This document shows, piece by piece, positions 22,423 to 22,460 of a stretch of 64,000 nt of DNA. Positions within the stretch are counted from its first letter, which is position 1. Each line of letters opens with the position of its first letter. This DNA comes from Escherichia coli (GTDB lineage Bacteria > Pseudomonadota > Gammaproteobacteria > Enterobacterales > Enterobacteriaceae): NCBI RefSeq assembly GCF_001677475.2, contig NZ_CP015229.1; one strand, written 5' to 3'. Position numbers and translations under genes: made by a program. Below the pieces are notes generated by a model, which saw only the letters and a program-made list of their open reading frames with translations, did no database searches and was not told where the DNA came from.

Positions 22423-22460
22423 CACTGTATAAAAATCCTATACTGTACGTATCGACAGTT
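22423..22460 (+). promoter_or_regulatory. Tandem LexA (SOS) boxes upstream of ydjM
   Basis: Perfect CTGT-N8-ACAG at 22443..22458 (tactgtacgtatcgacagtt), preceded by an imperfect box cactgtataaaaatcctata. Confidence 0.6.

Follow-up and report, generated by a model that had tools for sequence, protein, structure and literature searches.

Described LexA operators of ydjM, cho and related systems

Canonical single-box SOS operators, such as those of recA, sulA and uvrB, overlap the -10 region, and the Gammaproteobacterial consensus is a 20-bp imperfect palindrome, TACTG(TA)5CAGTA. Reviews credit the LexA boxes of Escherichia coli K-12 ydjM and ydjQ (cho) to Fernandez de Henestrosa et al. 2000 (Mol Microbiol) and Courcelle et al. 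2001.

Both genes have been placed under the heading 'Known SOS box' (PMC6590174), with published E. coli heterology indices (HI) of 7.5 for cho and 9.0 for ydjM (PMC11228462). The cho box has been printed as a LexA motif instance, with cho among the UV-induced genes (PMC3009722), a -52 entry for b1728 gives the 20-mer of the distal ydjM box (PMC4576408), and, according to a review, tandem LexA sites have been reported experimentally at ydjM (PMC4951493). Orthologues in Salmonella carry the same boxes, with HI values of 6.69 for ydjQ and of 9.12 and 12.85 for ydjM, the two ydjM boxes lying 14 and 32 nt from the ATG (PMC8072944). A related arrangement is found in colicin operators, in which strong and weak LexA sites overlap and are cooperatively bound (PMC4951493).

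Expression studies connect both genes to LexA. In the presence of non-cleavable LexA (lexA3), expression after AZT treatment is lower by 5.1-fold for cho and 8.6-fold for ydjM (PMC11228462), and ciprofloxacin elicits log2 fold changes of up to 1.59 for cho and 2.61 for ydjM (PMC11002266). In one study cho was not induced by AZT (0.77-fold) though its expression was lexA-dependent (PMC11228462). When gfp was fused to Salmonella ydjM and ydjQ, fluorescence stayed below detection and was too dim to score (PMC8072944).

Locus and gene identity

The window, meaning the whole 64-kb stretch of DNA analysed here, carries hxpB-ydjM-tcyP and nadE-cho-ves in an E. coli-like chromosome. Its DNA was compared with complete E. 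coli genomes, essentially all 5,426 of which match with best identities of 98.8-99.2%; in their RefSeq annotation the homologous segments read hxpB-ydjM-tcyP and osmE-nadE-cho-ves-spy. The names ydjM and cho are those given by the RefSeq annotation of this 99%-identical DNA, and the protein family matches are in agreement with them. YdjM is matched by Pfam PF04307 (YdjM; E 7e-36) and by the NCBIfam equivalog NF008651 (375 bits). Cho is matched by the NCBIfam equivalog NF007833, 'excinuclease Cho' (578 bits); it also has weaker matches to the N-terminal half of UvrC, and no Pfam match at E<=0.001. The ATG of ydjM is kept among orthologues and an in-frame GTG upstream of it, at 22463, is not; at cho, the GTG start and its GGAG Shine-Dalgarno sequence are invariant across 28 orthologues. 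Coordinates of the genes, the boxes and a putative promoter element are collected in Table 1.

Two Rfam matches elsewhere in the window, a Phe leader at 11420-11544 (minus strand, 74.4 bits) and the sRNA STnc540 at 7427-7579 (minus strand, 42.8 bits), are ordinary features of this chromosomal region.

Table 1. Features of the ydjM and cho loci in window coordinates, with HI and rank in the 64-kb matrix scan for the LexA boxes
Feature	Coordinates	Strand	Description
ydjM distal, weak LexA box	22423..22442	+	20-mer CACTGTATAAAAATCCTATA; HI 12.3 (rank 3)
ydjM proximal LexA box	22441..22460	+	20-mer TACTGTACGTATCGACAGTT; HI 10.7 (rank 2)
ydjM coding sequence	22475..23065	+	196 aa; inner-membrane, metal-dependent hydrolase family; ATG start
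Putative cho extended -10 element	35530..35538	+	TGtTACACT; from alignment inspection; overlaps left arm of LexA box
cho (ydjQ) LexA box	35535..35554	+	20-mer CACTGGATAGATAACCAGCA; HI 8.0 (rank 1)
cho (ydjQ) coding sequence	35568..36455	+	295 aa; excinuclease Cho, homologue of UvrC N-terminal half; GTG start after GGAG

LexA boxes and matrix scores

Upstream of ydjM, the span 22423-22460 (CACTGTATAAAAATCCTATACTGTACGTATCGACAGTT) consists of two 20-mers that have 2 bp in common and lie 18 bp apart, centre to centre. The proximal box contains a perfect CTGT-N8-ACAG core (22443-22458) and ends 14 nt before the ATG. The distal box has a CTGT left arm followed by an A-rich (AT-rich) spacer, with CCTA at the position of the right arm and no CAG. 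The single box at cho, with the core CTGG-ATAGATAA-CCAG at 35537-35552, ends 13 nt before the GTG. The first-pass annotation, made from the sequence before this analysis, had described a perfect CTGT-N8-ACAG box with an adjoining weaker box before ydjM, and a CTGg-N8-cCAG box before the cho GTG at 35536..35553. The sequence is as it described, the cho coordinates are accurate and fall within the 20-mer at 35535-35554, and the gene identities that it gave are borne out by the RefSeq annotation and by NF008651 and NF007833.

Bare dyads occur in the window at frequencies that are not significant on their own. CTGT-N8-ACAG is found once against 0.60 expected, with at least one match in 44 of 100 shuffles, and CTGG-N8-CCAG four times against 0.56 expected, the other three matches having GC-rich spacers. 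A matrix covering the full 20-mer was therefore built. This symmetrised Berg-von Hippel HI matrix was derived from the 17 LexA boxes of Table 4 of PMC3009722, with cho omitted, so that all three test sites were excluded from the training set, which is independent of them. The scan covered all 64 kb, with the chance level determined by first-order Markov simulations. An operator was expected to combine a CTG(T/G)-N8-(A/C)CAG core with an HI below about 15.

The three boxes are the three best matches in the 64 kb, and their full 20-mer scores are better than chance: per 64 kb, the Markov simulations predict 0.00 sites at HI<=8.1, 0.05 at HI<=10.7, 0.37 at HI<=13 and 1.9 at HI<=15. When each of the 17 training boxes was scored by leave-one-out, HI ranged from 2.0 to 16.7; all three sites lie within these limits and below the operator threshold, the distal ydjM box through its left arm and spacer only. 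The values obtained agree with the published E. coli and Salmonella indices. The two next-best matches, at 37913-37932 (HI 13.6; about 235 nt upstream of spy) and at 6484-6503 (HI 13.7), were rejected as SOS boxes, as they lie at the chance level for HI<=15.

Conservation across Enterobacteriaceae

Species-representative genomes were scanned with chbF, which lies between both loci, as the anchor. This yielded 80 loci. A ydjM orthologue is present in 46 of them, and 27 include a cho orthologue of full length together with its upstream DNA; the counts of 47 and 28 used below include the window itself. The orthologues come from about 15 genera, among them Escherichia, Citrobacter, Salmonella, Enterobacter, Lelliottia, Leclercia, Silvania, Klebsiella, Raoultella, Kluyvera, Trabulsiella and Pseudocitrobacter. 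Conservation in orthologous promoters, by which LexA operators were also judged, is seen in 47/47 ydjM and 28/28 cho regions.

The proximal ydjM box is present at -34 (+/-1) in every orthologous region (HI 5.8-11.0), with CTGT/ACAG arms in 41 of the 47 and CTGG/ACAG arms in the other six, around 11 spacer variants. The distal box is likewise always present, at -52 (+/-1), with HI values of 10.5-16.1. Its right-arm position reads CCTA in 47/47 sequences and never CAG, and the single change seen in its left arm, from CTGT to CTGG in one locus (L052), is compatible with LexA. The tandem of strong and weak boxes overlapping by 2 bp is fixed in all 47 sequences. The ydjM intergenic region (about 95 nt, from about -80 to the ATG) is, however, near-invariant across genera as a whole, and because it is nearly frozen throughout, its conservation does not single out LexA binding at the distal box.

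At cho, the box is found at -33/-32 in all 28 orthologous regions (HI 4.2-10.9). Its outer arms, CTG and CAG, are invariant around 12 spacer forms, and the inner arm bases vary between G..C (11 orthologues), T..A (13) and G..A (4). The DNA upstream of about -65 is unalignable among these orthologues. Judged from the alignment, this pattern is the signature expected of a dyad operator rather than of a generally conserved block. The switching of the cho inner bases and the fixed ydjM tandem lend modest support to ancestral regulation in Enterobacteriaceae. The weak distal ydjM site has been kept in every region compared; conservation does not give the reason for its upkeep.

The first-pass annotation had held that both genes are known members of the SOS regulon and that the sites are probably functional, and it had proposed position-weight-matrix scoring for LexA as a check. 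Regulon membership is confirmed by the 'Known SOS box' listing (PMC6590174) and by lexA3 dependence (PMC11228462). The scoring placed the boxes at ranks 1-3 in 64 kb, within the range of known boxes, and function is further supported by conservation across about 15 genera and by the published LexA-dependent expression. Its designation of the cho site as a mere 'candidate' proved too cautious: the site is a LexA box, as suggested, and by matrix score the stronger site of the two genes.

Variation among E. coli genomes is slight. The 86-nt stretch upstream of ydjM has no 100% match among the complete genomes, and at position 22422, directly 5' of the distal box, the window has A and complete E. 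coli genomes (three aligned) have G. This base was ruled out as a box-altering change, as it lies one base beyond the 20-mer. One or two bases likewise differ between the window and E. coli genomes in the upstream flank of the cho box. E. coli NIPH17_0036 (L004), the sole record of 5,420 with less than 95% identity across the 86-nt ydjM stretch, has a 7-bp deletion (AAATCCT) corresponding to window positions 22433-22439; the right part of its distal ydjM box is gone and the proximal box is intact.

Promoter elements and neighbouring sequences

A simple consensus scan found no sigma-70 promoter at ydjM or cho at its stringency. Inspection of the alignments, however, reveals -10-like hexamers that suggest an overlap between operator and promoter at both genes. 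At cho, the element TGnTAYACT is conserved in 27/28 orthologues. At ydjM, TATAAA (22428-22433), TATACT (22439-22444) and CACTGT/TACTGT lie within the boxes, the last of these placed 17 nt after an invariant GTTACA (22400-22405). Transcription is predicted to begin at about 35545 for cho and somewhere from about 22435 to 22452 for ydjM.

Directly upstream of the ydjM boxes, the block AGAGTTACACCGTCACCWCTTCCG (about 22396-22422) is near-invariant in the 47 ydjM regions compared, which represent about 15 genera. In genera other than Escherichia, the hxpB stop codon is directly followed by TTGTGACA and then by the block. The block may contain a -35 element (GTTACA) or a site of another kind.

The nadE-cho intergenic region holds further features. 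An Rfam match to the sRNA ES036 (CssrF) at 35418-35460 on the plus strand (38.9 bits against a gathering score of 37.6, E 2.8e-4) lies there, with the LexA box of cho about 75 nt downstream. Closer to the box, CCGCCTCTTTTTTAA (35500-35519) is conserved in orthologues and corresponds to the 'motif 2' instance listed for cho (PMC3009722). In Leclercia- and Enterobacter-type loci a clear GC hairpin, which presumably terminates nadE, has the counterpart of CCGCCTCTTTTTTAA as its T-tail. The terminator scan of the window found no passing hairpin at CCGCCTCTTTTTTAA, and a REP-like element lies just upstream.

The operator reading and its alternatives

There is strong evidence that the sites serve as LexA (SOS) operators for the chromosomal SOS genes ydjM and cho in an E. 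coli-type genome, a reading to which a probability of about 95% is assigned, with LexA occupancy taken from secondary citations. Its basis is the observed sequence, statistical excess, position and arm-preserving conservation of the boxes, together with LexA dependence and damage induction as described in the literature. It could be objected that short dyads turn up by chance close to gene starts without regulating anything, and the frequencies of the bare dyads are in keeping with this objection, with one CTGT-N8-ACAG match against 0.6 expected and three CTGG-N8-CCAG matches besides the one at cho. The full-matrix scores, however, are far beyond chance, position and arms are kept, amid diverging flanks, in 28-47 orthologous regions, and LexA-dependent expression has been published (PMC11228462; PMC11002266). 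The matrix scan and the conservation effectively refute an origin by chance.

The sole soft point of the operator reading is whether the distal ydjM box, which is a half-site only, binds LexA on its own. The distal 20-mer might instead be kept as core promoter sequence without being an independent LexA site, leaving the proximal ydjM box and the cho box as the LexA operators. Several observations point this way: CCTA never gives way to CAG in the right arm, conservation extends over the whole block from about -80 to the ATG instead of being specific to the box, HI values of 10.5-16.1 lie at the weak end, the -10-like hexamers described above and GTTACA are candidate promoter elements, a natural E. 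coli strain lacks 7 bp of the site, and only one ydjM site is included in the RegPrecise regulon according to PMC4576408. Against this, the distal box is the third-best matrix match in 64 kb and abuts the second-best in the strong and weak overlapping geometry of colicin operators (PMC4951493), its only left-arm change is one that LexA would tolerate, and the tandem sites are cited as experimentally reported (PMC4951493). On balance, a purely promoter-related role for the distal box appears unlikely. It is also conceivable, if rather improbable, that block AGAGTTACACCGTCACCWCTTCCG and the half-site-only distal box form a composite element, either a promoter of an unusual kind or a site for a second regulator, that sets ydjM expression independently of LexA or together with it. 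Such an element, if real, would account for the near-invariance of the entire intergenic region, beyond the dyad arms alone, over about 15 genera.

Proposed regulation of ydjM and cho

Under the operator reading, regulation would follow the classical scheme of LexA repression. A LexA dimer would occupy each box in undamaged cells, contacting the CTG(T/G) and (A/C)CAG arms. Bound LexA would block RNA polymerase at both genes, because the boxes, which end 13-14 nt before the start codons, appear to overlap the core promoter or to follow it directly. After DNA damage, RecA-ssDNA filaments would stimulate the self-cleavage of LexA, emptying the operators and allowing ydjM and cho to be transcribed. 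The two genes would differ in operator architecture. Control of cho would be exerted through one box of medium strength that overlaps the extended -10-like sequence TGnTAYACT. At ydjM, LexA would act through the strong and weak tandem with its 2-bp overlap, the weak distal site probably binding LexA cooperatively with the proximal one, by analogy with colicin operators, and thereby tightening repression. We infer both the exact promoter elements and the cooperativity at the distal ydjM site.

Through these SOS sites, a back-up nucleotide-excision nuclease (Cho) and the membrane hydrolase YdjM are put under DNA-damage control. Beyond annotation the importance of the sites is slight, as they belong to textbook members of the E. 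coli LexA regulon.

Comparison with known systems

The cho operator resembles canonical single-box SOS operators in that one 20-bp dyad, its spacer AT-rich, adjoins a putative promoter, and in its intermediate HI, which is near the published values for lexA and ruvA (PMC11228462). It differs from them in having CTGG/CCAG arms instead of CTGT/ACAG, a feature that it shares with ruvA (PMC3009722), and in its modest induction (PMC11228462; PMC11002266). The ydjM operator, in turn, is like those of colicin genes in combining a strong and a weak box that overlap by their terminal 2 bp. In contrast to colicin operators, the gene it serves is chromosomal and not a toxin gene on a plasmid, and its weak site is without a recognisable right arm.

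The closest counterparts are the ydjM and ydjQ boxes of E. coli K-12, from which the window shows no functional difference: the genes, the distances to the start codons and the HI values all match. The boxes are SOS boxes that have already been published, with nothing new about them. At the level of sequence, the cho 20-mer of the window is identical to the one published for K-12 (PMC3009722), and the distal ydjM 20-mer is identical to the -52 entry for b1728 (PMC4576408).
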